Below are positions 7,244-52,568 of a stretch of 64,000 nt of DNA, piece after piece. A program made the position numbers and the translations under genes. This stretch comes from Candidatus Binatia bacterium (GTDB lineage: Bacteria > Desulfobacterota > Binatia > HRBIN30 > CADEER01). The notes under the pieces are model-generated. The model had not been told where the DNA came from, made no database searches, and saw nothing but the letters and a program-made list of their open reading frames with translations. Within the stretch, counting starts at the first letter, position 1. Each line of letters begins with the position of its first letter. The stretch spans positions 191 through 64,190 of the forward strand of contig JBFXHX010000024.1 of the NCBI GenBank assembly GCA_050176585.1. The letters run 5' to 3'.

Positions 7244-7251
7244 CCCGACCG

Positions 7252-8682: not shown

Positions 8683-8693
8683 GCCGTTCGCAT

Positions 8694-27456: not shown

Positions 27457-28287
27457 ATGCCGGTCAGCGAGTTCGACGTACGCATCTACGACCTCGATGC
27501 CTTCGGCGATCTCCGCACCCACGTGCTGCTGCGGTTTCTCTGGCAGGCCGCGTCGGAGGCCTCCGCGGCGGCGGGCTTCGACGTCGACTGGTACGAGCGG
27601 CACGGCACGCTCTGGGTGATCCGCCGCACGCAGCTGGAGGTCCACAGGCCGATCGCGCACCGGGAACAGCTGCGCGTGCATACGGAAGTGGTGGACATTC
27701 GCCGCGTGCGCTCGCAGCGCGCGTACGCGGTACGGCGCACCGACGATGAAGCGGTGGTGGCGGAAGCGATCACGGATTGGGTGTACGTCGACCTGGCCCG
27801 CCGCGGCCTCGCTCAACCGCCGCCGGCCATGCAGCAGGCCTTCATGCCACGGGGTGTTGTCAGCCGCGCGCGCCCAGCGAGCCTGGCCAGCGCGCCGCCC
27901 GCAAGCGCATGGCGAGGGACCCGCAAGGTCGAGCTCGCAGATCTCGACACGGTGGCCCATGTGAACAACACCCGGTACGCGGTGTTCGTAGAGCAAGCCG
28001 TCTGGGACGCGCTGCAAGCGCACGGCTGGACCGTCGATCCCACGGCGCGGGGCGCGCGCTTGCGGCTGGCATCGCACGATCTCGAGTATTTCGATCCCGC
28101 GCGGTACGGCGAAACCATCGCAACAGCGGTGTGGGTATCCGCGCGCGCCGATTACGCTTTCACCACCGAGTGCCAACTCGCGGGGCCGCGCGGGCTGCTG
28201 TTGCACGCGCGCAGCACCTGGCGGTGGACCGACAGCGACGTGCCGCAAGTGCTGCGGCGGGCCGTCGAGCGCCTGAGCGCGGCTTAG
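27457..28287 (+). CDS. Acyl-ACP/acyl-CoA thioesterase-like double hot-dog protein
   Basis: 276 aa. Two hot-dog halves (YERHGTLWVIRRTQLEVHRP... and TVAHVNNTRYAVFVEQAVWDAL...). No clear SD. Confidence 0.55.
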   Translation: MPVSEFDVRIYDLDAFGDLRTHVLLRFLWQAASEASAAAGFDVDWYERHGTLWVIRRTQLEVHRPIAHREQLRVHTEVVDIRRVRSQRAYAVRRTDDEAVVAEAITDWVYVDLARRGLAQPPPAMQQAFMPRGVVSRARPASLASAPPASAWRGTRKVELADLDTVAHVNNTRYAVFVEQAVWDALQAHGWTVDPTARGARLRLASHDLEYFDPARYGETIATAVWVSARADYAFTTECQLAGPRGLLLHARSTWRWTDSDVPQVLRRAVERLSAA

Positions 28288-28580
28288 CCATGTCGCGCAC
28301 GCGATGCCGTATCGGCGTTGCGCACTCGAGCGCAGCCGGCGCGCAGCGCGGCGAATGCGATCATTTGACGGTACCGGCGGTCCAGGGTAGGTACCAGGCG
28401 AAATTGGATCGTCCGACCTGCGGTTCAGGCTCTCATCGAGGCTCCGAGTCAGCGGCACGACACTTACTGCATTGGTGGGCACGCCCGGCTGGGATGCAGG
28501 GCGCCGCGGCGTCAGCGCATCGAACAAGCAGTCTGCCGACACACGCGCGCACTGCCACTAGAACGACGAAGGGATACGAC

Positions 28581-29228
28581 ATGAGCTCCTCGGAAAAAGC
28601 AATTTTCGAGCACCAGGGTTTCGGACAGACCATGGGTCTCGGGCAGTCCCCTGCGCTCGTGGTCGTGGATTTCGTCGTCGCTTTCGACGATCCCAAACAG
28701 TTCGGCGGTGGCAACATCCATCCCGCGGTCGAGCAGACGGCGGGACTCCTCCAGTTCTGCCGCGCACAGCGCTATCCGATCGCTTTCACCCGCTATGTGT
28801 TTGCCGAGGACGGGAGCGACGGGAATTTGCTTACCGCCAAGGTGCCGAAGCTGCTCTCGCTCACCGAGAACAGTCCCAATGGCGCGGTCGTGCCGGAGCT
28901 GACCCCGGTTCCGGGCGAGCTGATCGTGCGCAAGCGCAATGCATCGGCATTCTTTCAGACTGATTTCTCGAGCTGGCTCGCTCGGCACCGCGTCGACACC
29001 TTGATCATCACCGGTTGCGTGACCTCCGGCTGCGTGCGCGCCACGGCGGTGGATTCGCTCGGGTTCGGATATCGCCCGATCGTGGTGACCGACTGCGTCG
29101 GGGACCGCGCCATCGCCCCGCACGACGCGAGCTTGTTCGACATGCAGCAGAAGTACGCCGATCTCTACACGCGGGATCAGTTGATCGCCGCATTGTCCGG
29201 GCGCCGTCCGACCACCGCCGCGGCCTGA
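28581..29228 (+). CDS. Isochorismatase-family cysteine hydrolase (RutB / N-carbamoylsarcosine amidase-like)
   Basis: 215 aa. AAGGGA RBS. Catalytic triad context VVVDFVVAF (Asp), K in the RKRNASAFF region, and TGCVTSGCVRATAVD (Cys). Confidence 0.8.
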   Translation: MSSSEKAIFEHQGFGQTMGLGQSPALVVVDFVVAFDDPKQFGGGNIHPAVEQTAGLLQFCRAQRYPIAFTRYVFAEDGSDGNLLTAKVPKLLSLTENSPNGAVVPELTPVPGELIVRKRNASAFFQTDFSSWLARHRVDTLIITGCVTSGCVRATAVDSLGFGYRPIVVTDCVGDRAIAPHDASLFDMQQKYADLYTRDQLIAALSGRRPTTAAA

Positions 29229-29348
29229 GCCGAACCGCCGTGCCGCCGAGACGACAGTGACACCCGGCCTCACCCGCGCGGTCCGAACGAAAACACAAAA
29301 ACCCATTCGCCGCGGCTAGCCTGCGCCTGCATTGCGAAAGAGACCCAC

Positions 29349-30755
29349 ATGACCGACCTCAGCTATGCCACCGCCCTCGAATTGAAGGATGCGATCGCCA
29401 CGAAGAAGCTCTCGCCTGTAGAACTGGTCAAGGCGTCGCTGGCGCGCCTGGACGAGCTCGAACCCAAGCTGAACTGTTTCGTCACGGTCACGCCGGAGCT
29501 CGCACTCGAGGCGGCGCGGGCGGCGGAGAAGGCCGTCATGAGCGGCCGGCCGCTGGGTGCGCTGCACGGGCTGCCGATATCGGTGAAAGACGTGCTCCCG
29601 GTGCAGGGCGTGCGGCTCACCACCGGATCGAAAGCATTCGCCGACACGGTCGCGCAGATCGACGCGCCGGTCGTCGAGCGCCTGAAGGCGGCCGGCGCCT
29701 GCATCGTCGGCAAGACGACGACGCCCGAGTTCGGCGCCAAAGCAGTCGGCACGTCGCCGCTGACCGGGGCTACGCGCAACCCCTGGAACACGGCCATGGG
29801 CTCCGGCGGATCGTCGGCGGGCGCCGCGGCGAGCGTCGCCGCCGGCGTCACGCCATTCTCGGTCGGAACCGATGGAGGCGGATCGATCCGCATTCCCTGC
29901 TCCTTCACGCATCTCTTCGGCGTGAAACCGCAGTTCGCGCGGGTGGCGATGTACCCGGTGAGTGCCGCGACCACGCTCGCGCACTGCGGCCCGATCGCCC
30001 GCACCGTGCGGGACGCGGCGCTGCTGCTGACCACGCAGGCTGGCTTCGACCCACGCGATGCCTGGACGGTCGCAGAACCGGTACCGGACTACCTGCGCGC
30101 GTGCGAGCAATCGCCCAAGGGCATGCGGGTCGCGTGGAGCCCGACGTTCGGTTTTGCAAAGCCCGACCCCGAGGTCTTGAAGATCGCCGAGACCGCAGCG
30201 CTGGCATTCCGCGACCTCGGATGCGAAGTCGAGCTGGTCGAGAAGGTGTTCGACGAGGACCCGGTCGGCATGTGGTCGAGCGAGTTCTACGCGGGGATCG
30301 CCACCCGCTTGAAGCCGATCATGGACAAGTCCCCCGAGCTCATGGATCCCGCCGTAGTGCACATCCTCGAGGCGGCGACCCGGCAGACGCTCGCCGAGTA
30401 CTACGGCAACGTGTTCAAGCGCTACGAGTTTCGCGAAAAGACGCGCCAGTTCTTCGAGCGCTACGACCTGCTGTTGAGCCCCACGCTGCCGGTCGCGCCG
30501 TTCGACGCGCTGCGCGACATGCCGCAAGAGCTCGAAGGCACCGACCGCAACGTCGTGTCGTGGGTCTACTACACGTATGCGTTCAACCTGACCGGCCAGC
30601 CGGCGGCCTCCATCCCCGCGGGGTTCACGCGCGATAGGCTGCCGGTCGGGCTGCAGATGGTTTCTCGCCTTTACCGGGAGACCGACATCTTCCGCGCCGC
30701 CGCCGCTTTCGAGGCGCTTCGTCCATGGGCACAAGAGAAGCCCCCGATCGACTGA
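29349..30755 (+). CDS. Amidase (amidase-signature family, GatA-like)
   Basis: 468 aa. AS signature GGSSAGAAASVAAGVTPFSVGTDGGGSIRIPCSF. Ser-cisSer-Lys triad context. Confidence 0.9.
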   Translation: MTDLSYATALELKDAIATKKLSPVELVKASLARLDELEPKLNCFVTVTPELALEAARAAEKAVMSGRPLGALHGLPISVKDVLPVQGVRLTTGSKAFADTVAQIDAPVVERLKAAGACIVGKTTTPEFGAKAVGTSPLTGATRNPWNTAMGSGGSSAGAAASVAAGVTPFSVGTDGGGSIRIPCSFTHLFGVKPQFARVAMYPVSAATTLAHCGPIARTVRDAALLLTTQAGFDPRDAWTVAEPVPDYLRACEQSPKGMRVAWSPTFGFAKPDPEVLKIAETAALAFRDLGCEVELVEKVFDEDPVGMWSSEFYAGIATRLKPIMDKSPELMDPAVVHILEAATRQTLAEYYGNVFKRYEFREKTRQFFERYDLLLSPTLPVAPFDALRDMPQELEGTDRNVVSWVYYTYAFNLTGQPAASIPAGFTRDRLPVGLQMVSRLYRETDIFRAAAAFEALRPWAQEKPPID

Positions 30756-30938
30756 TCGAGAGGTACGCTCCAGGATGAGAGTCCCGCCGCAATGTCCCTG
30801 AAGCCGCGCGGCTGCGCAGCGCCCGAGCGCTGCGGATTCGGCGCTCTGTTCGGGCACCCGTCGCCCCGGATATCGATTCCGAAGCGGTGAATCCGCGCAG
30901 CGCTCCGGTGCGAGACGCACTATCGAAGGAGGGTTTCG

Positions 30939-32117
30939 ATGCAACGGAGCACAGCCGAACGGATCCTCACCACCCTCACCGGCAGCCTGCCACGGCCCGA
31001 AGACCTCGCGGCGATGCACGTCGCGCGCGCGGACGGACACCAGATAGACGAGGCGGCCTTCCAGGCGCGCATCCGCAGTGCCGTCGCGGATGCCGTCGCC
31101 CACCAAGTCGATTTGGGAATCGACGTGGTCTCCGACGGCGAGCTCTCGAAGAACGGCTACATCGACTACACGCGCGAGCGCATCGCCGGTTTCAGCGGGA
31201 AGATGAACGCCTCTGGGGCGTTCTACTTCACCGATCTCGAGCCGGTTCCCGAGCTCGTCGAGTGGGGGTACAAGGACATTCACATGGCCATCCCCACCTG
31301 TGATGGACCGCTGCGCTACATCGGCGAATCGCAAGTCCAGCGCGACATCGGCAATTTCAAGGCCGCTCTCCAGCGCCATCCGGCCACCGAGGCGTTCATC
31401 CCCGCTGCGTCACCTGGCGTCGTCGCCATGTGCTCACCGAACACCTACTACGGCTCTTACGACGAGTACTTGCTGGCGCTCGCCGCAGCGCTGAACGCCG
31501 AATACCGCGCCATTGCGGAAGCCGGGTTTGTGCTGCAGGTGGACGCTCCCGATCTTGCGCTCGGCGCCGACTTCCACACCTGGATGTGGCCGGAAATCGA
31601 GCGGCGCAGCTTCGAAACCATCTCGCAGCTTCACGTGGAGGCCATCAACGTCGCCCTGCAGGGCGTCCCACGCGAACGCGCGCGGATGCATCTGTGCTGG
31701 GCGAACTACTTCGGACCGCATCGCAAGGACTATCCGCTCCGCGAGGTGCTCAAAGCGGCTTTTCGGGCCAACGTGGGCGGCATCAGCTTCGAGGCCGCGA
31801 ACCCGGCGCACGCCCACGAGTGGGAGCTGTTCGAGGACACCGCGGTGCCGGAAGGCATGACGCTCATTCCCGGCGTGATCGACACCAAGACGCACGTCGT
31901 CGAGCATCCGCACGCCGTCGCTCACCGCGTGCGGCAGTGGTCGCAGGTCGTCGGCGCAGAGAACGTCATCGCCGGAACGGATTGCGGTTTCGGGACGTTC
32001 GTCGGTCTCGGCACGGTGCATCCGAAGGTCACTTGGTGGAAGCTCCAGGCGCTCGCCGAGGGCGCCGCCCTCGCCTCCAAACCGCATTCGTCCCGGCCGG
32101 GCGCGGCGCGTACATAA
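30939..32117 (+). CDS. MetE-C-terminal-domain-like Zn-dependent (methyl)transferase family protein (UROD/MetE-like fold)
   Basis: 392 aa. AAGGAGGG RBS. N-terminal TTLTGSLPRP. Putative Zn ligands in MHLCWANY (His-x-Cys), a Glu, and GTDCGFG (Cys), arranged as in MetE. Too short to be full MetE. Confidence 0.65.
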   Translation: MQRSTAERILTTLTGSLPRPEDLAAMHVARADGHQIDEAAFQARIRSAVADAVAHQVDLGIDVVSDGELSKNGYIDYTRERIAGFSGKMNASGAFYFTDLEPVPELVEWGYKDIHMAIPTCDGPLRYIGESQVQRDIGNFKAALQRHPATEAFIPAASPGVVAMCSPNTYYGSYDEYLLALAAALNAEYRAIAEAGFVLQVDAPDLALGADFHTWMWPEIERRSFETISQLHVEAINVALQGVPRERARMHLCWANYFGPHRKDYPLREVLKAAFRANVGGISFEAANPAHAHEWELFEDTAVPEGMTLIPGVIDTKTHVVEHPHAVAHRVRQWSQVVGAENVIAGTDCGFGTFVGLGTVHPKVTWWKLQALAEGAALASKPHSSRPGAART

Positions 32118-32298
32118 GCGGTAAACCCGGTGCCCGCACCGCCCACTCTGCACCGCCGCTGGTGCGCCCGGTGCGGCGCCGAGCATTGACGCGCCGGATG
32201 GTCTCGCCTAAACGAAGCGGCGCTCGTCGGGTCCCGCCGCCGCGGCGCGGGCTGGCGACGGAGACACGAACGACTCACGCACCAGTACGGGAGCTTTG

Positions 32299-33900
32299 AT
32301 GCGCATCGGCATCGACGTTGGCGGCACGAACACGGACGCAGTCTTGATGAACGGGCCGGACGTGCTCGCGGAAGTGAAGACCTCGACGACGGCGGACGTC
32401 ACCAGCGGCATTACGGCGGCCCTGAAAGGGCTGGCGGCGCGCAAAGCCCTCGCTCCCGATCAGATCCAGGCCGTGATGATCGGCACGACGCACTTCACCA
32501 ACGCGGTCGTGGAGTGCCGGCGTCTGATGGCGACCGCCGCACTCCGCCTCGGGCTCCCGGCGACGCGCGCGCTGCGGCCGATGGCGGGCTGGCCCGAGCC
32601 GCTGCGCCGGGCGATCGGCGATCACGCGTACCTCTGTCACGGCGGTCACGAGTTCGACGGGCGCGCGATCTCGCCGCTCGACGTCGGCGAGCTCCGCCGC
32701 GTGGCGGAGGACATCAGGGCCAAGGGCATCCGCTCGGTCGCGATCACCGCGGTGTTCTCGCCGGTGAACGGCGATCTCGAACGCCAAGCCGCGGACGTGC
32801 TTCAGCGCGAAATTCCGGGGTTGGCGGTCAGCCTTTCGCACGAGATCGGCCGGATCGGTCTGCTGGAACGCGAGAGCGCCACGATCATGAATGCCTGCCT
32901 GCGCGATCTCGCCGTCCACATCACCGGCGCGTTTCGCGCCGCGCTGGACGCCTTCGGCATCGACGCGCCAGTCTATCTCAGCCAGAACGACGGCACGCTC
33001 ATGAGCGTAGAGTACGCGGAGACGTACCCGGTCGCGACGTTCGCCTCCGGGCCGACCAACTCGATGCGCGGCGCGGCGTTTCTGTCCGGGCTGACTGACT
33101 GCGTAGTGGTCGACATCGGCGGCACGACCTCCGACGTGGGACTCCTCCAGCGCGGCTTTCCGCGCGAGGCGTCGCTCGCGGCGGAGATCGGCGGCGTGCG
33201 CACCAACTTTCGCATGCCAGCGGTCTTCTCACTCGGGATCGGCGGCGGCAGCCATGTGTCTCCGGACGGCTCGTCCGTCGGACCGACCAGCGTCGGCTAC
33301 GAGCTCACCACGAAGGCGCTGGTGTTCGGCGGCGACACCTTGACGACCACGGACATCGCCGTCGCGGCCGGATTGGCAGACATCGGCGACCGCGCGCGGG
33401 TGGCGCATCTCCCCGCCGACCTCATCGCGCGCGTGATCGAGAAGATCGAGGTCGCCATCGCGCAGACCGTCGACCGCATGAAGACCAGCAAGGATCCGAT
33501 CCCGGTGGTCGTGGTCGGCGGCGGGAGCATCCTGGTGCAGGACCGCCTCGGAGCGGAGCGCCGGATCGTGAAGCCCAATCACTACGCCGTCGCGAACGCG
33601 ATCGGCGCCGCGATTGCGCAGGTGGGCGGCGAAGTCGACCGCATCTTCTCGCTCGCCGCGATGTCGCGCGAAGACGCGCTGGCCGAGGCAAAGGCCGAAG
33701 CCACGGAGAAGGCCATCGCCGCGGGCGCGAGCCCGGCGAGCATGAGCATCGTCGACATCGAGGAGGTGCCGCTCGCGTACCTGCCCGGGAATGCCGCGCG
33801 CATCCGGGTCAAAGCGGTGGGCGACCTCACCTTCGAAGCGCGCGAGACACCGACGCGCGGTGGCGGTGCGCCGATCGCGGCACAAGGCGGGAGGGGCTGA
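32299..33900 (+). CDS. Hydantoinase/oxoprolinase (HyuA)-N-terminal-family ATPase-like protein
   Basis: 533 aa. MRIGIDVGGTNTDAVL is the hallmark N-terminus of the hydantoinase A/oxoprolinase family (ASKHA-type fold). GGGS motifs present. ATG at 32299 (GGGAG RBS); the ORF track starts at a TTG at 32296. Confidence 0.75.
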   Translation: MRIGIDVGGTNTDAVLMNGPDVLAEVKTSTTADVTSGITAALKGLAARKALAPDQIQAVMIGTTHFTNAVVECRRLMATAALRLGLPATRALRPMAGWPEPLRRAIGDHAYLCHGGHEFDGRAISPLDVGELRRVAEDIRAKGIRSVAITAVFSPVNGDLERQAADVLQREIPGLAVSLSHEIGRIGLLERESATIMNACLRDLAVHITGAFRAALDAFGIDAPVYLSQNDGTLMSVEYAETYPVATFASGPTNSMRGAAFLSGLTDCVVVDIGGTTSDVGLLQRGFPREASLAAEIGGVRTNFRMPAVFSLGIGGGSHVSPDGSSVGPTSVGYELTTKALVFGGDTLTTTDIAVAAGLADIGDRARVAHLPADLIARVIEKIEVAIAQTVDRMKTSKDPIPVVVVGGGSILVQDRLGAERRIVKPNHYAVANAIGAAIAQVGGEVDRIFSLAAMSREDALAEAKAEATEKAIAAGASPASMSIVDIEEVPLAYLPGNAARIRVKAVGDLTFEARETPTRGGGAPIAAQGGRG

Positions 33901-33902
33901 CG

Positions 33903-34991
33903 ATGGGCCGCGATCTGACGGTGGAAGACTTGGAGGACTTGGCGCGCGGCGCGGCATTCCTGGGCACCGGCGGCGGTGGCGATCCCTACATCGGGCGGCT
34001 CATCGTGCAGGAGGCCATGCGCGAGGGCGGGCGCGTCCGGCTGATCGGACTCGACGAAGTCCCCGACGACGCGCTGGTCATCCCGACCGCCATGATGGGC
34101 GCGCCGACCGTGCTCGTTGAAAAGATCCCCGCCGGAACGGAGATCATCGGTTCGCTGCAGACGCTCGAAACGCACCTCGGACGCAAAGCGTACGCGACGA
34201 TGCCGATCGAGTGCGGCGGGATCAATTCCATGATGCCGCTGCTGGTGGGCGCACGGCTGGGCATTCCGGTGGTCGACGCGGACGGCATGGGCCGCGCCTT
34301 CCCCGAGCTGCAGATGGAGACGTTTCACATCTACGGCGTCTCCGGCACGCCCATGGTGATCACCAACGACCACGGCGATTCCACCCTCATCACCGCGCAC
34401 GACAACAGGATGATGGAGCATCTCGCGCGCGGCATCACCGTCCGGATGGGCGGCTGCGCGTACATCGCCGAATACTCCATGGACGGCGCGACGGTGAAGC
34501 GGGTCTCGATCCCCGGTACGACCACCCTCGGGATCGCGATCGGACGCTGTCTGCGCGTGGCGCGCGAGCAGCACGAGGATCCGTTTGCCGCGCTGATCGA
34601 GATGTTGCGGACCACCCCGTACAAGTACGCGCGCATCATCTTCGAGGGGAAAGTCGCGGATGTGATGCGGGAGACCACCGAAGGCTTCGTGCGCGGCTTT
34701 GCGAAGCTGGAAGCGGCGGACGGCACGCCGCTGGAGATCCTCTTCCAAAACGAACACCTGATCGCCCGCTCGGACGGCCAGGTGAAAGCGATCGTTCCCG
34801 ATCTCATTTGCGTTCTCGAAGCCGATACCGCGGAGCCGATCACCACCGAGGGCATCCGCTACGGCCAGCGCGTGAAGATCATGGCCGTATCGACGCCGGC
34901 GATCATGCGCACCCCCGAGGCGCTCAACGTCTTCGGCCCGCGCGGCTTCGGGCTCGATTACGATTTCCAACCGATCGAGGAGCTGAGCTAG
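33903..34991 (+). CDS. DUF917-family protein (hydantoinase-associated, unknown function)
   Basis: 362 aa. Starts 2 nt after the HyuA-like stop, with GGGAGGGG RBS. N-terminal GTGGGGDPYIG. From memory, DUF917 genes are typically found next to hydantoinase-like genes. Confidence 0.6.
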   Translation: MGRDLTVEDLEDLARGAAFLGTGGGGDPYIGRLIVQEAMREGGRVRLIGLDEVPDDALVIPTAMMGAPTVLVEKIPAGTEIIGSLQTLETHLGRKAYATMPIECGGINSMMPLLVGARLGIPVVDADGMGRAFPELQMETFHIYGVSGTPMVITNDHGDSTLITAHDNRMMEHLARGITVRMGGCAYIAEYSMDGATVKRVSIPGTTTLGIAIGRCLRVAREQHEDPFAALIEMLRTTPYKYARIIFEGKVADVMRETTEGFVRGFAKLEAADGTPLEILFQNEHLIARSDGQVKAIVPDLICVLEADTAEPITTEGIRYGQRVKIMAVSTPAIMRTPEALNVFGPRGFGLDYDFQPIEELS

Positions 34992-35036
34992 CCGTCTCCG
35001 CCGCGGCGGCGACGAGCGAATCGGGAGCAAGCCACA

Positions 35037-35353
35037 TGGCACAACGCGTGTTCTTCCTCACTCGGCTCCGCCCGGGCATCCGTCCAGAGGACTACGAAGG
35101 GTGGCTCCGCACCGTCGATTATCCCTTCTCCGCACGGCTCCGCACGCTTCGGCGGTACGACGTGACCAGGATCGGCGGCTTGTTTCAGGGCCAGGGAAGC
35201 GCCGAGTGGCATTACCTCGAAGTAATGGACGTCACCGATCTGGAGGCCTATCGCCAGGAGGTCACGACGGGGCCCGACATCGAGGCGTTCTTCAAAGCGT
35301 GGTCGAGCTTCATCGGCGAGTCGATGGCGTACCACGGCGAGGTCATCGAATGA
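35037..35353 (+). CDS. Small (105 aa) protein, possibly dimeric alpha/beta-barrel (EthD-like), hypothetical
   Basis: ATG at 35037 with GGGAG upstream. High GC3. The ORF-track frame 34211..35353 is mostly an overlap artefact. Confidence 0.4.
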
Positions 35354-35393
35354 CCGTCGCGACGGGCGCGCCGGTTATGCAGGGGCAGTGACA

Positions 35394-36395
35394 ATGACGA
35401 GCGGAACTAGACGACACCCGGTCGGCCTCGTACTCGGCAGCGACACGGCGCCGGAGAAGTTGCCCGCCATGGCGCGCGCCGCCGAGGAGCTCGGGTACAG
35501 CGAGCTGTGGTTCGCGGAGGACTGTTTCTTCATCGGTGGCATCTCCGGCGCGACGGCGACCCTGGCGGCGACCACGGACATCCCGATCGGGCTCGGCATC
35601 CTATCCGCCGTCGTCCGCCATCCGGCGATTCTGGCCATGGAGCTCGCGACGCTCGCGCGCATGTACCCCGGACGGCTCATGCCGGGCATCGGCGTCGGCG
35701 TACCCGACTGGATGCGGCAGATCGGCCGCTTCCCGAAGTCCGCGTTGGCCGCCTTGCGGGAATGCGTAACCACCACGCGCCAGCTCCTCGCGGGAGAGGA
35801 GCTCACCCTGAAGGGCGACCTGTTCAGCTTCGATCACGTGCGGTTAACGCACGTCCCGGATCGGCCGTTGCCCATCTACATGGGCGTCGTCGGGCCGAAG
35901 AACCTGCAGCTCTCCGGCGAGATCGCCGACGGGACGGTGATCTCGGTGCTCGCGGGACCCGACTACGTGCGCTGGCTGCGAGAGCGGGTCCGCGAGGGCG
36001 CGGCACGGAGCGGCCGCTCGGCGGAGAAGCACCGCGTCGCTTGTTACGTTCTCTGTTCAGTGGACGCCGATCGCCAACGGGCGCGCGACGACGTGCGCCC
36101 GATCGTCGCCTTCTATCTGGCCGCCATGGGCCGCTGCGCGCTGACCGATGTACCCGCATATTCCGACCACCTCGAGAAACTGATCGCCAAAGGCGGTCTC
36201 CAAACGGTCACCGAGGAGATGCCGGACGAGTGGCTAGACGAGCTCGCCGTCGCCGGGACGCCGGCGGAGTGCGCGGAGAAGATCCGGCGCTATTTGCAGG
36301 CCGGCGCGGATTCGGTGGTGATCTGGCCCGCTCCCGCCGCGCGCACCGAGGCGATCGTGAACAGCGTCGCGCGCGACGTGTTTCCACGGCTGTGA
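35394..36395 (+). CDS. LLM-class (luciferase-like) flavin/F420-type oxidoreductase, paralog 1
   Basis: TIM-barrel LLM motifs: GYSELWFAEDCFF, GLGILSAVVRHPAILAMELATLARMYPGRL, IYMGVVGPK. Start is ATG 35394 or GTG 35388. Confidence 0.8.
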   Translation: MTSGTRRHPVGLVLGSDTAPEKLPAMARAAEELGYSELWFAEDCFFIGGISGATATLAATTDIPIGLGILSAVVRHPAILAMELATLARMYPGRLMPGIGVGVPDWMRQIGRFPKSALAALRECVTTTRQLLAGEELTLKGDLFSFDHVRLTHVPDRPLPIYMGVVGPKNLQLSGEIADGTVISVLAGPDYVRWLRERVREGAARSGRSAEKHRVACYVLCSVDADRQRARDDVRPIVAFYLAAMGRCALTDVPAYSDHLEKLIAKGGLQTVTEEMPDEWLDELAVAGTPAECAEKIRRYLQAGADSVVIWPAPAARTEAIVNSVARDVFPRL

Positions 36396-36498
36396 TCGGT
36401 CCGGCCATGCATCGGCGCGGCGCGGCCGCAGTGAGCGTCCGGGGTCCGGCGGCAGCGTGCACGGCTCGGACCGAGACGAATAGAAAGGCAGGTGTGAA

Positions 36499-37497
36499 GT
36501 GAGTGCGACGAATCGGCCGCCCGTCGGCCTGGTGCTTGGCAACGCGAGCCCGCCAGAGACGCTCGCCGAGACGGCGCGCGTCGCCGAGGACTTCGGCTAT
36601 AGTGAATTGTGGTTCGCCGAAGACTGTTTTTTCACCGGAGGCATCTCGGGGGCGACCGCCGCGCTGGCCGCGACCAAGGACATCCCGGTGGGTCTCGGCA
36701 TCGTCTCCGCCCTGGTCCGCCATCCGGCAATCCTCGCCATGGAGATCGCCACGCTGGCGCGCATGTACCCGGGGCGGCTGCTGCCGGGCGTCGGGCTCGG
36801 CGTGCCGGACTGGATGCGGCAGATCGGCCTGCTGCCGAAATCGCCGCTAACCGCGCTGCGCGAATGCATGTCCTCGACCACCCGCCTGCTCGCGGGTGAA
36901 GAGGTCACGATGAAGGGGCAGCTCTTCAGCTTCGACCGCGTCAAGCTCACGCACGTCCCGCATCGACCGGTGCCGATGTACATGGGCGTGGTCGGACCGA
37001 AGATGCTCCAGCTCTCCGGCGAGCTCGCCGACGGCACCGTCGTGTCCGTGGTCGCGTCGCCCGGTTACGTCAGCTGGCTGCGCGAACGCGTGCGCGAGGG
37101 AGCGGCCCGCAGCGGACGTTCGGCGGCGGCGCACCGCGTCGCGGCGTACGTGCTCTGCTCGGTCGATTCGGATCGCAAGCGCGCAAAAGAGGCGCTGCGC
37201 CCGTTCATCGCCTTCTATCTGGCTGCGGTCGGCCGTTGCGCGCTGACCGAGGTGCCCGGTTGCGCCGATCAGCTGGAGAAGCTGATCGCCAAGGGCGGCG
37301 CGGAGGCCGTGACCCGAGAGATGCCGGACGAGTGGGTCGACGAGCTCGCGATCGCGGGGGATCCGACCGAGTGCGCCGAAAAGATCAAGCACTATCTGGC
37401 CGCCGGCGCAGATTCCGTGGTCATCTTCCCGACGCCCACCGAGCGGGCCGAGGAGATCGTCAAGACCGTCGCCCGCGACGTGTTCCCGCGTCTGTGA
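36499..37497 (+). CDS. LLM-class flavin/F420-type oxidoreductase, paralog 2 (tandem duplicate of 35394..36395)
   Basis: Roughly 75% amino-acid identity to the upstream gene over its full length (same blocks GYSELWFAEDCFF, VRHPAILAME, YMGVVGPK, GRCALT, EKLIAKGG). GTG start. Confidence 0.8.
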   Translation: MSATNRPPVGLVLGNASPPETLAETARVAEDFGYSELWFAEDCFFTGGISGATAALAATKDIPVGLGIVSALVRHPAILAMEIATLARMYPGRLLPGVGLGVPDWMRQIGLLPKSPLTALRECMSSTTRLLAGEEVTMKGQLFSFDRVKLTHVPHRPVPMYMGVVGPKMLQLSGELADGTVVSVVASPGYVSWLRERVREGAARSGRSAAAHRVAAYVLCSVDSDRKRAKEALRPFIAFYLAAVGRCALTEVPGCADQLEKLIAKGGAEAVTREMPDEWVDELAIAGDPTECAEKIKHYLAAGADSVVIFPTPTERAEEIVKTVARDVFPRL

Positions 37498-37540
37498 GAT
37501 CCCAGCCCGGGGCGAACGGGAGAGTGGCCGGTTCCAGTCG

Positions 37541-38878
37541 CTAGAGGCCGGCGGTCACGCGCAACGCTTGGGCGCGCGCTTGGGCGCGCCGCAGCAGCGC
37601 GGGCTCGTCAATCGTCAGCAGCTTGCGGCCCCGGACCACCACCCGTCCGCCGACGATCACCGTATCCACATCGCCGGCGCGCGCGGAATAGACCAGGGTC
37701 GCGAGCGGATCGTGAATGGGTCGCAGATGGCTGGCCGCGGTGTCCACCAGCACGACGTCCGCCAACCGCCCCTTCTGCAGCGCTCCCACCTGGTCGCCGA
37801 GGCCGCACGCCTGCGCGCCGCCGGCGGTCGCCATCGCGAACACGTCGGCCGCGGTGAGCGCCTGCGCGTCGCGGGTGGTCACTTTGTGCAGCAGCGCCGC
37901 GTCCTTCATGACCTCGAACATATCCTGCGTGTTGTTGCAGGCCGGACCGTCGCACGCGAGGCCGATGACGATCCCAGCGCGGCGCATCTTCAGGATGGGC
38001 GCCGTTCCCGAGGCCAGGATCATGTTGGAGGTCGGATCGTGGATCACCGGCGAGCCGTGGCCGGCGATTAGCTCGATCTCGTCGTCGGTCAGGTGAATGC
38101 AGTGGTTCAACATGACGCGCTCGCCGAGTGCGCCCATCGCCGCTAAATGCGGCACATTGCGACGCCCCGTGCGCGCCTGCACGAGATCGTTGTATTCGGG
38201 CGTCTCGGCCGTGTGCAGATGGACGGCGAGGTTGCGGTCGCGCGCAAGCGCGACCGTGTCGGCCCAGTACTCCTCGGTCGCCGTCCACGGAACCAGCGGG
38301 CCGATGCCAATGCGGAGCCGCTCGTGCCCCGACCAGGCATCCACGAGCTTGCGGGTGCGCGAGGCGATCTCAGCCGTTGATTCGACGAAACCGGGCGCGA
38401 ACTCCTCATCGTTGGAACAGCGGAAGAAGACGCCGCGAATGCCGGCCTCGGCAATGGCATTGGCGGCCAGCGCATCCGCGCCTTCGCCATAGCGGGTGGA
38501 GAAAAACACTTCGCAGACGGTGGTGTTCCCGGCGCGCAGATTCTCCACCGCCCCGAGCGTGGCCGCGAGCGCGTAGTCCTCCGGCAGCATCTGCGCCATG
38601 AACGGCAGCTGCGCCTGGCTGAGCCATTGCAGCAGCGTGCGATCGGTGCCGAGCGAACGGCCGAGCGTCATGCAGAGATGCGTGTGCGCGTTGACGAATC
38701 CGGGGATGACGAGCTTGTCGCGCGCGTCGATGCGCTCAACGCCGGGCAGGCTGGGTGCGGAGCCCCGACCGACCGCCGCAATCCGGTCGCCGTCGGTGAT
38801 CACGTGTCCGGGGTCGAGCAACGGCTGCGCCGCATCCCCGGTCAGTACGGTACCGCCCTCGATCGAGAGTTGAGCCAT
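37541..38878 (-). CDS. TRZ/ATZ-family amidohydrolase (cytosine/guanine-deaminase-like, SsnA-like)
   Basis: 445 aa. GGGGAGGG RBS. Metal-binding FVNAHTHLCMT, HLHTAETPEY, HCIHL and the downstream Asp region. Confidence 0.85.
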   Translation of the reverse strand: MAQLSIEGGTVLTGDAAQPLLDPGHVITDGDRIAAVGRGSAPSLPGVERIDARDKLVIPGFVNAHTHLCMTLGRSLGTDRTLLQWLSQAQLPFMAQMLPEDYALAATLGAVENLRAGNTTVCEVFFSTRYGEGADALAANAIAEAGIRGVFFRCSNDEEFAPGFVESTAEIASRTRKLVDAWSGHERLRIGIGPLVPWTATEEYWADTVALARDRNLAVHLHTAETPEYNDLVQARTGRRNVPHLAAMGALGERVMLNHCIHLTDDEIELIAGHGSPVIHDPTSNMILASGTAPILKMRRAGIVIGLACDGPACNNTQDMFEVMKDAALLHKVTTRDAQALTAADVFAMATAGGAQACGLGDQVGALQKGRLADVVLVDTAASHLRPIHDPLATLVYSARAGDVDTVIVGGRVVVRGRKLLTIDEPALLRRAQARAQALRVTAGL

Positions 38879-38956
38879 GCTACCCCTCCCCGGCCGTGCT
38901 GCAGGAGCGCGGCGACACCTCGCGCATACGTACCGTCTACGTCGTCGGCGCCGAGC

Positions 38957-40309
38957 TCACGCGGTCACGTGCGCGTCCGCCCGCGCCAGCGCGCGATCGA
39001 GGATCGCGATCCCGAGCCGCGCATCCTCCACGGAGGTGGTGCACGGCGGCACGGCATGCACGCGATTGAAGTGCATGAACGGCCACAGCCCCTCCGCCTT
39101 GCAGGCGGCCATCACTTCCGCCATCGGCGCCGCCGCCGCGCCCGCGGCATTGTACGGGACCAGCGGCTCGCGGGTCCGCCGATTGCGGACCAGCTCGACC
39201 GCCCAGAAGCAGCCGAGACCGCGCACCTCGCCTACCGACGGATGGCGTTCCGCCAGCGCCCGCAGGCCTGGGCCAAGCACCTCATCCCCCAGGCGGCGGG
39301 CCTGCTCGATGATGCCCTCCTCCTCGAAGGTGCGGATCGAGGCGACGGCGGATGCGCAGGCGAGCGGATGGCCTGAGTACGTGAGCCCGCCGGGGAACAC
39401 CCGGTCGCGGAACGTCTCGGCGATCCGCCGCGAGATGATCACCCCGCCGAGCGGCACGTATCCGGAATTGACGCCCTTCGCGAAGGCGATGAGGTCGGGC
39501 ACGACCTTCCAGCGGTCGACCGCGAACCATTCGCCGCAGCGCCCGAAACCGGACATGACCTCGTCGCAGACGAAGACGATGCCGTACTGGTGGCAGAGCT
39601 CGCGCACGCCGGCGAGGTAGCCGTCGGGCGGCACGAGGATGCCGTTCGTGCCCACCACCGTTTCGAGCATCACGGCAGCGATCGTGCTGGGCCCCTCGAA
39701 GGTGATCGTATCGGCGAGATGCGCGAGGGCGCGCTCGCACTCCTCGGCCTCGGAGGACGCGTGGAATGGGGACCGATACGGATACGGTCCCCAGAAGTGG
39801 ACCACGCCGGGCATCGCGGGTTCATTCGGCCATCTCCGCGGGTCACCGGTCATGGCAATCGCGCCGCTGGTGGCGCCGTGGTAGCTGCGGTACGCGGTCA
39901 GGATCTTCTGCCGCCCGGTGTGGAGGCGGGCGAGGCGCGCGGCGTTTTCGGTCGCCTCCGCGCCGCCGTTGGTGAAGAACACGACGTCGAGATCGCCCGG
40001 GGCGTGCGACGCGATGAGGCGCGCGGCCTCGCTGCGCATGTCGTTGGCGTGAAACGGCGCGATCGTGCACAGCTTCGCCGCCTGCGCCTGAATGGCGGCC
40101 ACGAGCTTGGGGTGCTGGTGGCCGATGTTGACGTTGACCAGCTGCGAGGCGAAATCCAAGTACCGCTTGCCGCTCTCGTCCCAGAACCACGAGCCCTGGG
40201 CCCCGGCGACGACCACTGGGTCGAGCGCGCCTTGCGCCGACCACGAGTGAAACACGTGCGCGCGGTCGTCCGCTTTGGCCTGTCCCGGCGGGGTATCGCG
40301 AGTGCTCAT
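38957..40309 (-). CDS. Class-III (omega) aminotransferase, beta-alanine/omega-amino acid:pyruvate transaminase-like
   Basis: 450 aa. PLP-lysine context DLIAFAKGVNSGYVPLGGV. VCDEVMSGFGR, and Gly-rich TNGGAEA. Confidence 0.9.
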   Translation of the reverse strand: MSTRDTPPGQAKADDRAHVFHSWSAQGALDPVVVAGAQGSWFWDESGKRYLDFASQLVNVNIGHQHPKLVAAIQAQAAKLCTIAPFHANDMRSEAARLIASHAPGDLDVVFFTNGGAEATENAARLARLHTGRQKILTAYRSYHGATSGAIAMTGDPRRWPNEPAMPGVVHFWGPYPYRSPFHASSEAEECERALAHLADTITFEGPSTIAAVMLETVVGTNGILVPPDGYLAGVRELCHQYGIVFVCDEVMSGFGRCGEWFAVDRWKVVPDLIAFAKGVNSGYVPLGGVIISRRIAETFRDRVFPGGLTYSGHPLACASAVASIRTFEEEGIIEQARRLGDEVLGPGLRALAERHPSVGEVRGLGCFWAVELVRNRRTREPLVPYNAAGAAAAPMAEVMAACKAEGLWPFMHFNRVHAVPPCTTSVEDARLGIAILDRALARADAHVTA

Positions 40310-40325
40310 TGTCCGCGCCGACCGC

Positions 40326-41339
40326 TCACGCCTTTGCTACCGCGACCGCCGGCATGATCGTCTCGCCATACGCCTCGAGGGTCGCTTGCTTGGCGTCGTG
40401 CTGGAGGTAGATCGCGAACTGGTCGACCCCCATTGCCTTCAGCTCCTGCAGGCGCTCGATGTGATGAGCGGGCGATCCGAGGATGCAGAAGCGGTCAACG
40501 ATGGCATCGGGCACGAACGCGGTGTGCCTGTTCCCGCTGCGCCCGTGCTCGCTGTAGTCGTAGCCCGCGCGCTGCGCGATGTAATCCGTGAGCGCCCGCG
40601 GCACGTCCGCGCCGCCCTTCGCACCGTACCGTTTGACGATCTCCACCACGTGGTTGCCGACCATGCCGCCGAACCAGCGGCATTGGTCGCGCTGATGGGC
40701 GAGGTCGTCCCCGACGTAGGCAGGGGCGGCGACGCAGATCTTCACGCTCGCCGGATCGCGACCCGCCTGCTCGGCTGCATCCCGGACGGCTCTGATCGAC
40801 CATCGCGTGACGTCGGGATCGGCGAGCTGCAGGATGAACCCGTCCGCGATTTCGCCGGTGAGCGCCAGCGCCTTCGGCCCGTACGCCGCCATCCACACTT
40901 CCAGGCGGCTCGCGCTGCCCCAAGTGAAGCGCAGCCGCGCGTTGTTGTGCTCGATATCTCGCCCATTGGCGAGCTCCCGGATCACGTGAATGGCCTCGCG
41001 CAACGTGGCCAGGTTGCTGGGCGCGCCGTTGATGACGCGGACGGAGGAGTCGCCGCGCCCGATGCCGCACACGGTGCGGTTGCCGTACATCTCGTTGAGC
41101 GTGGCAAAAAGGCTCGCCGTCACCGTCCAGTCCCGCGTCACCGGATTGGTGACCATGGGGCCGACGATCACCTTCCGGGTCTCGGCCAGGATCTGGCTGT
41201 AGATCACGAACGGCTCCTGCCAGAGCAGGGGGGAGTCGAACGTCCACACGTGGGTGAAGCCGAGGAGTTCGGCGCGCTTGGCAAGGTCGACGACCCGCCA
41301 CGCCGGCGGGTCCGTCTGCAGGACGATGCCGAAATCCAT
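40326..41339 (-). CDS. LLM-class flavin/F420-type oxidoreductase embedded in the pyd-like operon
   Basis: 337 aa from the ATG at 41339, which lies 2 nt after the mmsA stop (translational coupling). Starts MDFGIVLQTDPP...FTHVWTFDSPLLW, a typical LLM N-terminus. The ORF-track ORF 40326..41672 is over-extended. Confidence 0.8.
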   Translation of the reverse strand: MDFGIVLQTDPPAWRVVDLAKRAELLGFTHVWTFDSPLLWQEPFVIYSQILAETRKVIVGPMVTNPVTRDWTVTASLFATLNEMYGNRTVCGIGRGDSSVRVINGAPSNLATLREAIHVIRELANGRDIEHNNARLRFTWGSASRLEVWMAAYGPKALALTGEIADGFILQLADPDVTRWSIRAVRDAAEQAGRDPASVKICVAAPAYVGDDLAHQRDQCRWFGGMVGNHVVEIVKRYGAKGGADVPRALTDYIAQRAGYDYSEHGRSGNRHTAFVPDAIVDRFCILGSPAHHIERLQELKAMGVDQFAIYLQHDAKQATLEAYGETIMPAVAVAKA

Positions 41340-41341
41340 GC

Positions 41342-42829
41342 TCAGCGGACCTGGGGAAAGCCGAGATCGACCCGCGACGTCGCCGGATCGGGCCAGCGCG
41401 ACGTGACGACCTTGGTGCGGGTGTAGAAGTCGATGCCTTCCGGGCCGTACATGTGTCGATCGCCGAACAGCGAGGCCTTCGACCCGCCGAAGCTGTAGTA
41501 CGCGACCGGCACCGGGATCGGCACGTTGATGCCGACCATGCCGATGTTGACGTCGAACTGAAATCGCCGCGCGGCGCCGCCATCGCGGGTGAAGATCGCC
41601 GTCCCGTTGCCGTACGGGTTCTCGTTCACGAGGTCGACCGCGGCGCCGTACGAGTCGACCCGCGCGACGCACAGCACGGGGCCGAAGATCTCGTCGCGGT
41701 AGCAGGCCATCTCGGGCGTGACGTGGTCGATCAGCGACACCCCGAGGAAGAAGCCCTCGCGCGGGACCGCGGCCTCGCGGCCGTCGACCAGCACGACGGC
41801 GCCCTGCTCGCGGCTGGAGTCCAGATACGAGGCGACCTTGTCCCGGTGCTCGCGCGTGATGAGCGGCCCCATCTCGCTGCGCGGGTCGGAACCAGGCCCG
41901 ACCGCGATCTTGCCGAGGCGGGAGCGGATCGCGTCGACCAAGGCGTCGGCGACCTCGCCCACGGCGACCACCACCGACACCGCCATGCAGCGCTCGCCGG
42001 CCGAGCCATAGGCGGCGGAGACAGCTGCATCGGCGGCCATGTCGATGTCGGCGTCGGCCAGCACGACCATGTGGTTCTTGGCCCCGCCGAGGGCCTGCAC
42101 CCGCTTTCCGTTGCGCGTGCCGGTTTCATAAATGTAGCGCGCGATCGGCGTCGAGCCGACGAACGATACGGCGGCGACATCGGGATGCTCGAGCAACCCG
42201 TCGACTGCGAGCTTGTCGCCATGCACGACGTTGAACGCTCCGTCCGGCAGTCCCGCCCGCTGCAGCAGCTCGGCCAGCAGGAGCGGTGCCGACGGGTCCT
42301 TCTCGCTCGGCTTCAGCACGAACGCATTCCCGCAGACCAGCGCGTTTGCGATCATCCAGATCGGCACCATCGCCGGAAAGTTGAACGGCGTGATGCCGGC
42401 GACTACGCCGAGTGGCTGGCGGATGCTGTACACGTCGACCCCGCTGGAGGCCTGCTCGCTGTAGCCGCCTTTGAGCAGGTGCGCCGCGCCACACGCGAAC
42501 TCGATGTTCTCCAGGCCGCGCGCCACCTCGCCGAGCGCATCGTCGCTCACCTTGCCGTGCTCGGCGGTGATGAGCGCGGCGATGTCGCGCCGATGCCGGT
42601 CCACGAGCTCGCGGAACTTGAACATCACCTCGGTGCGGCGCGACAGCGCCGTCGCACGCCACGCCGGAAAAACGGCGACCGCCGCGGCCACCGCCGCGTC
42701 GATTTCCGCGCGCGAAGCGAAATCGACCTCCGCTTTCACTTGTCCCGTGGCGGGATCGAAGACCTGCCCGCGGCGGCCGGACGCGCCGGCGACCGCCCGG
42801 CCGCCGACGAAGTGATGAATGTGCTGCAT
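41342..42829 (-). CDS. mmsA: Methylmalonate-/malonate-semialdehyde dehydrogenase (CoA-acylating)
   Basis: 495 aa from the ATG at 42829 (GAGGAG RBS). MMSDH-type ALDH with catalytic Cys in GSAGERCMA, lacking the general-base Glu context of hydrolytic ALDHs. GITPFNFP, VLKPSE. Confidence 0.85.
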   Translation of the reverse strand: MQHIHHFVGGRAVAGASGRRGQVFDPATGQVKAEVDFASRAEIDAAVAAAVAVFPAWRATALSRRTEVMFKFRELVDRHRRDIAALITAEHGKVSDDALGEVARGLENIEFACGAAHLLKGGYSEQASSGVDVYSIRQPLGVVAGITPFNFPAMVPIWMIANALVCGNAFVLKPSEKDPSAPLLLAELLQRAGLPDGAFNVVHGDKLAVDGLLEHPDVAAVSFVGSTPIARYIYETGTRNGKRVQALGGAKNHMVVLADADIDMAADAAVSAAYGSAGERCMAVSVVVAVGEVADALVDAIRSRLGKIAVGPGSDPRSEMGPLITREHRDKVASYLDSSREQGAVVLVDGREAAVPREGFFLGVSLIDHVTPEMACYRDEIFGPVLCVARVDSYGAAVDLVNENPYGNGTAIFTRDGGAARRFQFDVNIGMVGINVPIPVPVAYYSFGGSKASLFGDRHMYGPEGIDFYTRTKVVTSRWPDPATSRVDLGFPQVR

Positions 42830-42837
42830 GGCGCTCC

Positions 42838-44262: not shown

Positions 44263-44395
44263 GTCAGTCCTCCGTCGGGAAGGCGCGGCGGGGGGACGCC
44301 GCCGCGGCATGGGGGCGCGCCCGCCCCACCCTCCAGGTGGCGCGCGCCGCGACGCGGAACGAAAGTCCTGCGGAATGCGGATCGCCGCAGCGAGA

Positions 44396-45238: not shown

Positions 45239-45490
45239 GGCGGTTCTCCCTTCATCTGGTCCCAGCTCTCGGCTGGATCATAAGGGAAGGCGCGGACGGC
45301 TGACAATGCCGAACGACCGTCGGAGAGTGTCGCACAGGCCGCGCTCGCCCGATGAGCGGCACTATCTGCACTAGCAGCCGCTCTCCCACTTTGGTTTGCC
45401 AGAACACGCCGCGGGTCAGTAGAAGAGGGCGGCCACACTGCGAAGCGTTGCTCCACGGATTGCGAACGCAAGGAAGGAAGGAGCCGGCTG

Positions 45491-46531: not shown

Positions 46532-46633
46532 CCCGGGCCCGGGTTGCGCGCGGCGGGCGCCCGGGTGAGTGACGCGGGCCGACGCTGCGAGGTGCGGGGG
46601 ACTCCAGGCACACACTATTGGAGGGTGACAGCC

Positions 46634-47494: not shown

Positions 47495-47533
47495 GCCGAG
47501 TCGCGTTCCACACCCCGATTGCGTGAGTGCGTC

Positions 47534-52546: not shown

Positions 52547-52568
52547 GCAGCACGACAGGAGGTGCAGC

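Follow-up and report, generated by a model that had tools for sequence, protein, structure and literature searches.

Six co-oriented genes at 28581-35353 of a 64,000-nucleotide stretch from a Candidatus Binatia bacterium (hereafter the window) raise the question of which of them form a functional unit and which reaction such a unit might perform. An initial annotation, made from the sequence alone, had proposed all six as one candidate module for the degradation of N-heterocycles or cyclic amides, with a HyuA-like and a DUF917 protein as ATP-dependent ring opener at its centre. The six plus-strand genes were all confirmed, with start and stop positions agreeing to within 0-3 nt and with Pfam families mostly as labelled, and in four metagenome contigs of this organism, identical to one another (L013-L016), the same gene boundaries were called independently. 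What is conserved across genomes is smaller: the unit is the gene pair at 32299-34991, encoding a short HyuA-type ASKHA ATPase and the DUF917 protein, which in the Binatia lineage is extended by a HapK-like protein and one to two luciferase-like (LLM) oxidoreductases. Judged from their linkage and fusion, the two proteins of the pair evidently function as one enzyme, and the chances are about even that this enzyme opens cyclic amide rings at the expense of ATP, with DUF917 in the place of HyuB.

Linkage and fusion of the ATPase and DUF917

The two genes of the pair are as follows.

32299-33900, plus strand: short HyuA-type ASKHA ATPase, 533 aa (Pfam Hydant_A_N and Hydantoinase_A, 129.9 and 103.2 bits)
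33903-34991, plus strand: DUF917 or S-Me-THD-like protein, 362 aa (Pfam PF06032 (S-Me-THD_N) and PF20906 (S-Me-THD_C), 207.4 and 209.1 bits)

The ATG of the DUF917 gene follows the stop codon of the HyuA-like gene after 2 nt, a spacing already given in the initial annotation, and a GGAGG lies within the 3' end of the HyuA-like gene. The window proteins were compared with loci from genomes (12) and metagenomes (4) and with 16 further loci recovered via homologues, from Binatia, Actinomycetota and metagenome contigs; wherever a locus reaches far enough upstream, a short HyuA gene (~513-534 aa) is found directly beside one to four DUF917 genes. On plasmids, tblastn gave 135 records with a match to the ATPase and 127 with a match to DUF917, the taxa being represented almost equally: 27 and 27 in Rhizobium, 16 and 15 in Lactiplantibacillus, 7 and 7 in Haloferax and 5 and 5 in Parageobacillus, respectively. 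Linkage was counted in the 46 plasmid records that appear in both top-60 match lists: the best ATPase and DUF917 matches lie <=1.2 kb apart in 46/46, with a median gap of ~20 nt and most gaps between -16 and +38 nt, while two gaps of ~1.1 kb correspond to the width of one DUF917 gene, both records having extra DUF917 copies. Annotated examples of the pair come from Haloferax volcanii pHV3, Geobacillus, Lactiplantibacillus plantarum, Mesorhizobium, Shinella, Arsenophonus and Aureimonas, and adjacent genes of the pair are listed in papers for Clostridioides difficile and, with consecutive accessions, for Lactobacillus rhamnosus. The pairing, which the initial annotation had already described as recurrent in other genomes, holds far beyond chance in the plasmid records and in all adequate loci.

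The two proteins are also found as one. An exhaustive search of 1.84 billion representatives returned 4,324 relatives of DUF917 at E <= 0.001, and among the best 150 of these are proteins of 920-1007 aa with DUF917 at their C-terminus. Six fusion representatives show Hydant_A_N, Hydantoinase_A, S-Me-THD_N and S-Me-THD_C in this order, and five of the six, all full-length fusions, are of eukaryotic source, namely Ancoracysta twista, Sulcionema specki, the anaerobic protists Anaeramoeba flamelloides and A. ignava, and the starfish Acanthaster planci (P0433, P0442, P0468, P0470 and P0495); the starfish protein, XP_022083172.1, is annotated as 'uncharacterized protein'. Fusions were found by the exhaustive representative search only, none being present among the 120 closest homologues of the short HyuA. 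Residues 1-520 of the window ATPase align with the N-terminal halves of the fusions at 42-47% identity and residues 5-360 of the window DUF917 with their C-terminal halves; since the alignment with the N-terminal halves runs end to end, the short ATPase is a complete module. It is highly probable that ATPase and DUF917 constitute an obligate two-component enzyme, which in prokaryotes would take the form of a physical complex.

The stoichiometry of the genes is variable. In L019 (5046-14587), L037 (Haloferax volcanii pHV3, 6364-11192) and L038 (Geobacillus pBcl1, 3090-9651), DUF917 paralogues occur in two to four divergent copies per ATPase gene, with 28-53% identity to the window copy and the usual order ATPase, a, b, c. 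Plasmid pBcl1 has two ATPase-DUF917 pairs around an NCS1 permease, with one of the ATPases shortened.

Predicted folds and motifs of the two proteins

On inspection of its sequence, the ATPase has intact phosphate motifs (P1 DVGGTNTD, P2 DIGGTTSD), which match the CapA definitions of the gamma- and beta-phosphate motifs (PMC8453981). Its AlphaFold 2 (AF2) model, with a predicted local distance difference test score (pLDDT) of 81.8, retrieved by Foldseek the N-methylhydantoinase NMHase (9h03), the acetophenone carboxylase Apc (5l9w_B) and CapA (6yra_A) with query TM-scores (TMq) of 0.74-0.76, whereas ASKHA proteins outside the A-subunit family, such as dehydratase activators, sugar kinases and PilM, gave TMq <=0.34. 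As modelled, the ATPase is of the fold class of the A-type subunits of hydantoinases, lactamases and carboxylases. Canonical HyuA has ~700 aa; for the 533-aa window protein no Pfam match to Hydant_A_C (PF19278) was obtained and its alignment to full-length HyuA ends at about residue 371, while the canonical HyuA encoded in locus L029 does possess this domain. In caprolactamase, a loop from the alpha+beta domain of the C-terminal region of the A subunit contacts the B subunit (PMC8453981).

Weak Pfam matches of the ATPase to the MutL/GlmL and BcrAD/BadFG activase families point to an alternative, in which DUF917 would be the sole catalyst, with hydrolase or desulfurase action on a hydantoin-like ring, and the short HyuA an activase, a metal-loading factor or a repair chaperone. 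Such a helper would also suit the single ATPase gene that serves one to four DUF917 paralogues, and stand-alone thiohydantoin desulfurases are named by NCBIfam among the DUF917 relatives. We nevertheless hold this arrangement to be unlikely, as the whole chain has the fold of substrate-activating A subunits (TMq ~0.75, compared to ~0.3 for HgdC-type activases) and the stable 1:1 fusion in eukaryotes suits a catalytic subunit better than a chaperone that acts catalytically.

The domains of DUF917 have been renamed S-Me-THD_N and S-Me-THD_C in Pfam. The AF2 model of the window protein has a pLDDT of 90.1, and its sole PDB match in sequence, profile and Foldseek searches is 2o3i, a function-less structural-genomics entry. 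That DUF917 might be a disguised HyuB was considered and, because the Foldseek match is restricted to 2o3i, dropped. A tblastn search of the entire 64 kb window with a HyuB gave no match at E <= 0.01. An alignment of 21 diverse members of the family, among them paralogues and copies from archaea and Firmicutes, reveals as invariant G21-x-G-G-G-G26, E73, E80, E103 and N108, followed by D125-x-D127-x-x-G130-R131-A132-x-P134, E172, E284 and P299-D300. Every invariant column is retained in the window protein, and neither His nor Cys is among the invariant residues.

The sole named relatives of DUF917 in NCBIfam are thiohydantoin desulfurase and S-methyl-thiohydantoin desulfurase (NF058529, NF058532), which, with shared Pfam domains and as the two best NCBIfam matches, raise the question whether the window gene encodes one of these enzymes of ergothioneine catabolism. 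This is highly improbable. The scores of 92.5 and 95.1 bits compare with cutoffs of 440 and 450, respectively; ergothionase, thiourocanate hydratase and ErtD were not seen among the scanned genes, a scan that skipped some small open reading frames of the window; and the nearby minus-strand cyclic amidohydrolase fails the ErtD model (207 vs 650) and passes that of dihydropyrimidinase (TIGR02033, 536.6 vs cutoff 393). By its profile scores, the window DUF917 is a member of the desulfurase superfamily and not one of those enzymes, and, with scores so far below cutoff, these relatives do not bring about the second case that the initial annotation had named as refuting, in which DUF917 would be part of a known, unrelated pathway.

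Neighbours of the pair in relatives

Hydantoin-utilisation (hyu) clusters are composed of an NCS1 permease, a racemase, a hydantoinase and a carbamoylase. In Actinomycetota, an NCS1 'cytosine/purine/allantoin' permease gene is located directly 5' of the ATPase gene and, in one locus, a PucR regulator gene downstream; in Firmicutes and Arsenophonus the cassette is minimal, a permease gene together with those of DUF917 and the ATPase, to which L. plantarum adds a PucR regulator. In other lineages, peptide-type ABC or OPT transporters, genes of the Asp/Glu/hydantoin-racemase family, AroM, DUF1177 and a CN_hydrolase or M20 aminoacylase are found near the pair. By analogy with hyu clusters, it is the position of the hydantoinase that the pair occupies in these relatives. 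The window itself holds, over its 64 kb, no homologue of the racemase, the peptide ABC substrate-binding protein, cyclodipeptide oxidase (CDO), AroM or DUF1177, and no transporter families were seen among its scanned genes, with NCS1 not queried directly.

A flavoenzyme acting on ring C-C bonds recurs directly beside the DUF917 genes and is of three types. A CDO-like nitroreductase together with PF19585 is found in L017, L019 and L029, with a nitroreductase match also in L011 and L027, and a gene of the dihydroorotate dehydrogenase family (DHO_dh) in L021-L024, while an LLM gene lies 3' of the pair in L001, the nearest other genome, in L030 and in the window. According to work on CDO, PF19585 is the CDO B subunit, and non-biosynthetic CDO clusters are enriched in DUF917, called uncharacterised there, as well as in racemase homologues, AroM and peptide transporters (10.1101/2023.09.25.559410). 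In the metagenome locus L029 (6754-11443), the ATPase and two DUF917 genes are directly followed by a fused CDOA-CDOB gene (nitroreductase and PF19585) and next by a pair of canonical full-length HyuA and HyuB genes; as both ATP-dependent systems coexist in this locus, they are presumably not redundant.

In the window, the pair is followed by three genes.

35036-35353, plus strand: HapK/REDY-like small alpha+beta protein (Pfam PF11639, 39.5 bits vs cutoff 25)
35388-36395, plus strand: LLM oxidoreductase 1 (LLM1; Pfam PF00296, 193 bits)
36499-37497, plus strand: LLM oxidoreductase 2 (LLM2), a tandem paralogue of LLM1 (Pfam PF00296, 190.9 bits)

The HapK-like gene accompanies the pair solely in the Binatia lineage, where it is kept after DUF917 in L001 with 62% identity. 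The best NCBIfam matches of LLM1 are mostly F420-type LLM models, all under cutoff, and the protein is probably F420-dependent, a flavin or deazaflavin partner beside the pair; on the identical contig its start is called 6 nt later. LLM1 and LLM2 share 77% nucleotide identity over 300 nt. As L001 has a single LLM, which is closest to LLM2 of the window (80%), the duplication is recent.

The neighbours in relatives do not speak with one voice regarding the substrate. The NCS1 and PucR contexts favour hydantoin- or nucleobase-like substrates, whereas contexts with peptide transporters, CDO and M20 favour diketopiperazines, that is, cyclic dipeptides. Were short HyuA and DUF917 an ATP-driven hydrolase which opens 2,5-diketopiperazines to linear dipeptides, this would explain the dipeptide/oligopeptide ABC and OPT transporters, CDO homologues, racemases and M20 peptidases, the 'permease plus pair' plasmid cassettes of food lactobacilli, the substrate-specialised DUF917 paralogues and the fusions in protists and a starfish. 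In this narrow form, the proposal is a speculative one with a low probability. Enzymes that hydrolyse diketopiperazines were reported as unknown as of 2013 (PMC3852281).

A proposed ring-opening reaction

For the pair as a whole we consider an ATP-dependent opener of cyclic amide rings, of the hydantoin, dihydropyrimidine or diketopiperazine type and with DUF917 acting in HyuB's place, to be about as probable as all else taken together; its use of ATP, its chemistry and its substrate class are argued by analogy. In caprolactamase, CapA makes a phospho-lactim which CapB hydrolyses (PMC8453981). Correspondingly, the short ATPase would, in a first step, phosphorylate the lactim oxygen of its substrate, a hydantoin-, dihydropyrimidine- or 2,5-diketopiperazine-class cyclic amide or ureide. 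In a second step, DUF917 would direct water onto the activated carbon, upon which the ring would open and the phosphate leave; the glycine-rich loop and the acidic cluster of DUF917 would suit the binding of a divalent metal along with a phosphorylated intermediate. A flavin or deazaflavin enzyme encoded next to the pair, an LLM here and CDO-like or dihydroorotate dehydrogenase (DHODH)-like elsewhere, probably sets the saturation of the ring and, in the window organism only, hydrolases encoded upstream, one similar to the maleamate amidohydrolase NicF and to N-carbamoylsarcosine amidohydrolase (CSHase) and the other an amidase, may process the linear amide or carbamoyl product. Thiohydantoin desulfurases hydrolytically displace sulfur from C2 of thiohydantoins. 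With phosphate as a leaving group analogous to this C2 sulfur, the mechanism would be chemically coherent.

Several points weigh against this proposal. DUF917 has no detectable similarity to HyuB and is without the Asp-His-Asp-His metal site of the latter. Thiohydantoin desulfurases are not known to need an ATPase, and the chemistry of DUF917 would therefore not intrinsically require ATP. One ATPase gene often accompanies two to four DUF917 paralogues, which is unusual for a fixed heteromer. Neighbour contexts are split between nucleobase- or hydantoin-like compounds and cyclic dipeptides and, as no transporter, racemase or CDO homologue was seen in the window, the argument from context is borrowed from relatives. 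Finally, no biochemical or functional study of the coupled pair was found in the searchable literature.

The ATP might also drive another chemistry, such as the carboxylation of a small ketone or cyclic amide, or the replacement of its activated carbonyl oxygen by nitrogen (amidine formation). The A subunits of acetone and acetophenone carboxylases are structurally as close as those of hydrolases, DUF917 relatives exchange the C2 group of a hydantoin-type ring rather than open the ring, and caprolactamase requires bicarbonate (PMC8453981). On the other hand, the catabolic neighbours, transporters, racemases and carbamoylase- or amidase-type hydrolases, fit ring opening with subsequent amide hydrolysis, and a homologue of HyuB, the metal-containing coupling subunit of the carboxylases, is missing from the window, so that we judge this alternative quite unlikely. 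Ring opening by HyuA-like protein and DUF917 stands as the most reasonable reading, given the A-subunit structure and the hydantoinase slot elsewhere; the further part of the original proposal, that the opener feeds amide hydrolases, does not stand as a conserved design and, with the isochorismatase and amidase genes absent from relatives, is reduced to a lineage-specific possibility.

The genes upstream of the pair

Three genes of the six precede the pair.

28581-29228, plus strand: isochorismatase-family cysteine hydrolase (Pfam PF00857, 125.7 bits)
29349-30755, plus strand: amidase-signature amidase (Pfam PF01425 Amidase, 342.6 bits)
30939-32117, plus strand: short MetE-like Zn protein, 'cobalamin-independent methionine synthase II family' (Pfam PF01717 Meth_synt_2, 55.3 bits, C-terminal catalytic domain only)

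Synteny of the isochorismatase and amidase genes with the pair is seen in the contigs of the same organism only (L013-L016); elsewhere, weak non-syntenic amidase-family matches occur in L008 and L021/L022. L001, a Binatia metagenome-assembled genome (MAG) with a DUF917 protein 87% identical to that of the window, shares the MetE-like gene, the HapK-like gene and one LLM gene. A PIN-domain toxin gene (L001, 453-1172) is located there 5' of the MetE-like gene, in the position of isochorismatase and amidase, and marks a synteny break. The isochorismatase and amidase genes are lineage-specific neighbours outside the conserved core.

A single module for the degradation of N-heterocycles, with the products of the HyuA/DUF917 opener passing to the amidase, the isochorismatase-type hydrolase and the MetE-like enzyme, would be in line with the co-orientation of the genes and their identity in the four same-organism metagenome contigs, with the abundance of C-N hydrolases in the region and with N-carbamoylsarcosine amidohydrolase as the second-best solved relative of the isochorismatase-family protein. 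In creatinine catabolism, N-carbamoylsarcosine amidohydrolase acts directly after an ATP-dependent N-methylhydantoinase. However, a syntenic isochorismatase or amidase gene is missing from all other loci, with the PIN toxin instead in the closest genome; the MetE-like homologues sit in unrelated contexts and the isochorismatase homologues belong to nicotinate (nic) clusters; and the first three genes are spaced by gaps of 120-183 nt, between each other and before the pair, compared to 2-44 nt in the core, to which tight packing is confined (HyuA, DUF917, HapK and LLM1). We see little probability in such a module. As the comparison of neighbourhoods shows no co-conservation of the six genes outside the same species, which the initial annotation itself had named as refuting its proposal, the set is largely refuted as a conserved module, although its members could cooperate locally.

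The individual genes can be assigned to families more closely. Among solved structures, the isochorismatase-family protein scores 218 bits with 3ot4/3uao, which we take to be the maleamate amidohydrolase NicF, 146 and 97 bits with N-carbamoylsarcosine amidohydrolase and 35 bits with RutB structures; by sequence, the product of 28581-29228 is closest to maleamate (NicF) and N-carbamoylsarcosine amidohydrolases. The earlier label 'RutB-like' was discarded, the score with the RutB equivalog model being 36.7 bits against a cutoff of 377.95. Plasmid homologues with 52-54% identity are located in the nic clusters, and the neighbours of an Azospirillum homologue are a 2,5-dihydroxypyridine dioxygenase, an alpha/beta hydrolase, an Asp/Glu racemase-family gene and an FAD monooxygenase. 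For the amidase, Pfam agrees with the amidase-signature label; it scores 485 bits with NCBIfam PRK06169, slightly under the cutoff of 506, and its PDB relatives are GatA, aryl acylamidase and 6-aminohexanoate-cyclic-dimer hydrolase.

Canonical MetE has two domains, ~750 aa and the Zn ligands His/Cys/Glu/Cys, whereas the window protein is without the N-terminal domain. It matches the MetE profile solely at positions 421-496 of 750 and misses every methionine-synthase equivalog cutoff (best 92.8 vs 406). As anticipated in the initial annotation for the Zn-ligand pattern, H251, C253 and C349 are invariant and E285 is nearly so in 26 homologues, which also share the subfamily motif N288-x-x-H291-x-H293-E294-W295. 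By these features it is a member of the MetE superfamily and a putative Zn protein rather than an assigned methionine synthase. The gene is syntenic with the pair in just one relative, L001; that it travels with the pair was considered and rejected, as homologues with 57-71% identity sit in unrelated neighbourhoods (three homologue contexts and plasmid contexts). An alpha/beta hydrolase gene is found directly 3' of the MetE-like gene in L035 and several plasmid records, which suggests a separate small module unrelated to the HyuA-DUF917 pair. The order MetE-like, then alpha/beta hydrolase is seen in L035 (6451-10096) and L045 (4995-6820), in one case with an NCS1 permease in front.

Surroundings in the window

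The window has a GC content of ~67%, and NCBI proteins from a Binatia MAG match two of its products, the HyuA-like and the MetE-like protein, with 100% identity. A promoter and terminator scan and a repeat search of 28200-37600 gave nothing informative except the LLM tandem duplication. As had been stated initially for pyrimidine/hydantoin genes, an apparently complete reductive pyrimidine catabolic set on the minus strand (37541-45238) lies beside the six genes. Besides the dihydropyrimidinase, it comprises the following.

37541-45238, minus strand: TRZ/ATZ-type deaminase; class-III aminotransferase (passes PRK06062); LLM oxidoreductase (40326-41672); CN_hydrolase

A minus-strand methylmalonate-semialdehyde dehydrogenase scores 717 with TIGR01722 (cutoff 448). 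In this set, a canonical dihydropyrimidine dehydrogenase was not found; the LLM at 40326-41672 might stand in for it. A plus-strand block at 45356-49918 encodes, besides an LLM (TIGR03842 family, 268 bits vs cutoff 295) and another CN_hydrolase, a molybdenum hydroxylase from the xanthine-dehydrogenase family; farther along the window are a TRZ/ATZ-type amidohydrolase (51026-52546), a Rieske oxygenase (52383-53741) and a LigB-type dioxygenase (57607-58614). The window has the look of an N-heterocycle catabolic island. In annotating it, the ATPase-DUF917(-HapK-LLM) block alone merits treatment as a unit, with individual annotation for the three genes upstream.

Comparison with known systems

The pair is widespread; it is found in both bacteria and archaea, and some eukaryotes have it fused into one protein. 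With its adjacency visible in annotations and DUF917 noted in CDO clusters, it is a known unknown. Identification of its substrate would annotate thousands of 'hydantoinase/oxoprolinase family' and 'DUF917' genes, would clarify the non-biosynthetic CDO clusters and would possibly yield a biocatalyst for stable cyclic amides.

With HyuA-HyuB, OplA-OplB, CapA-CapB and the acetone and acetophenone carboxylases the window system has in common the A-subunit fold as modelled, the Pfam N-terminal and ASKHA domains and the phosphate motifs, and like the HyuA-HyuB family it has the ATPase gene immediately beside the gene of a second, presumably catalytic protein, with relatives in cyclic-amide catabolic contexts. 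In contrast to that family, the ATPase is ~160 aa shorter and without Hydant_A_C, up to four DUF917 paralogues accompany one ATPase gene, and the partner DUF917 is of unrelated fold with invariant carboxylates and glycines, where HyuB has its Asp-His-Asp-His metal site.

The thiohydantoin desulfurases and 2o3i belong to the same two-domain fold and family as DUF917, the substrates of the named members being hydantoin-type rings. The glycine-rich loop, D-x-D-G-x-G-R-A-x-P, N-E and P-D are kept in the alignment with 2o3i, a likeness that applies to 2o3i, as the desulfurases are not in the alignment. In difference to the desulfurases, the window DUF917 scores at about one fifth of the equivalog cutoff, is obligately linked to an ATPase, with which it is fused in eukaryotes, and has no ergothioneine-pathway context.

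As in hyu clusters, the pair of the relatives is flanked by an NCS1 permease, Asp/Glu/hydantoin-racemase-family genes and a CN_hydrolase or M20, but the metal-dependent amidohydrolase-type hydantoinase is replaced by ATPase and DUF917. Of the creatinine route, N-methylhydantoinase followed by N-carbamoylsarcosine amidohydrolase, the window recalls the second step, with a close relative of N-carbamoylsarcosine amidohydrolase encoded three genes upstream; a permease or racemase as in hyu clusters was not seen in the window itself.

The CDO-like clusters without cyclodipeptide synthase (non-CDPS) show the same set of DUF917, hydantoin-racemase homologues, AroM, peptide/OPT/EamA transporters, CDOA and CDOB; in the passage of their description considered here, DUF917 alone is treated as a possible hydantoinase and its ATPase partner is not named (10.1101/2023.09.25.559410). 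L017, L019 and L029 are of this cluster type, while the window has LLMs in place of CDO. Relative to the characterised ATP-dependent hydantoinases and lactamases, we propose by analogy that what is new in the window is a non-homologous catalytic partner; if so, ATP-dependent opening of lactams and hydantoins would have evolved a second such partner.

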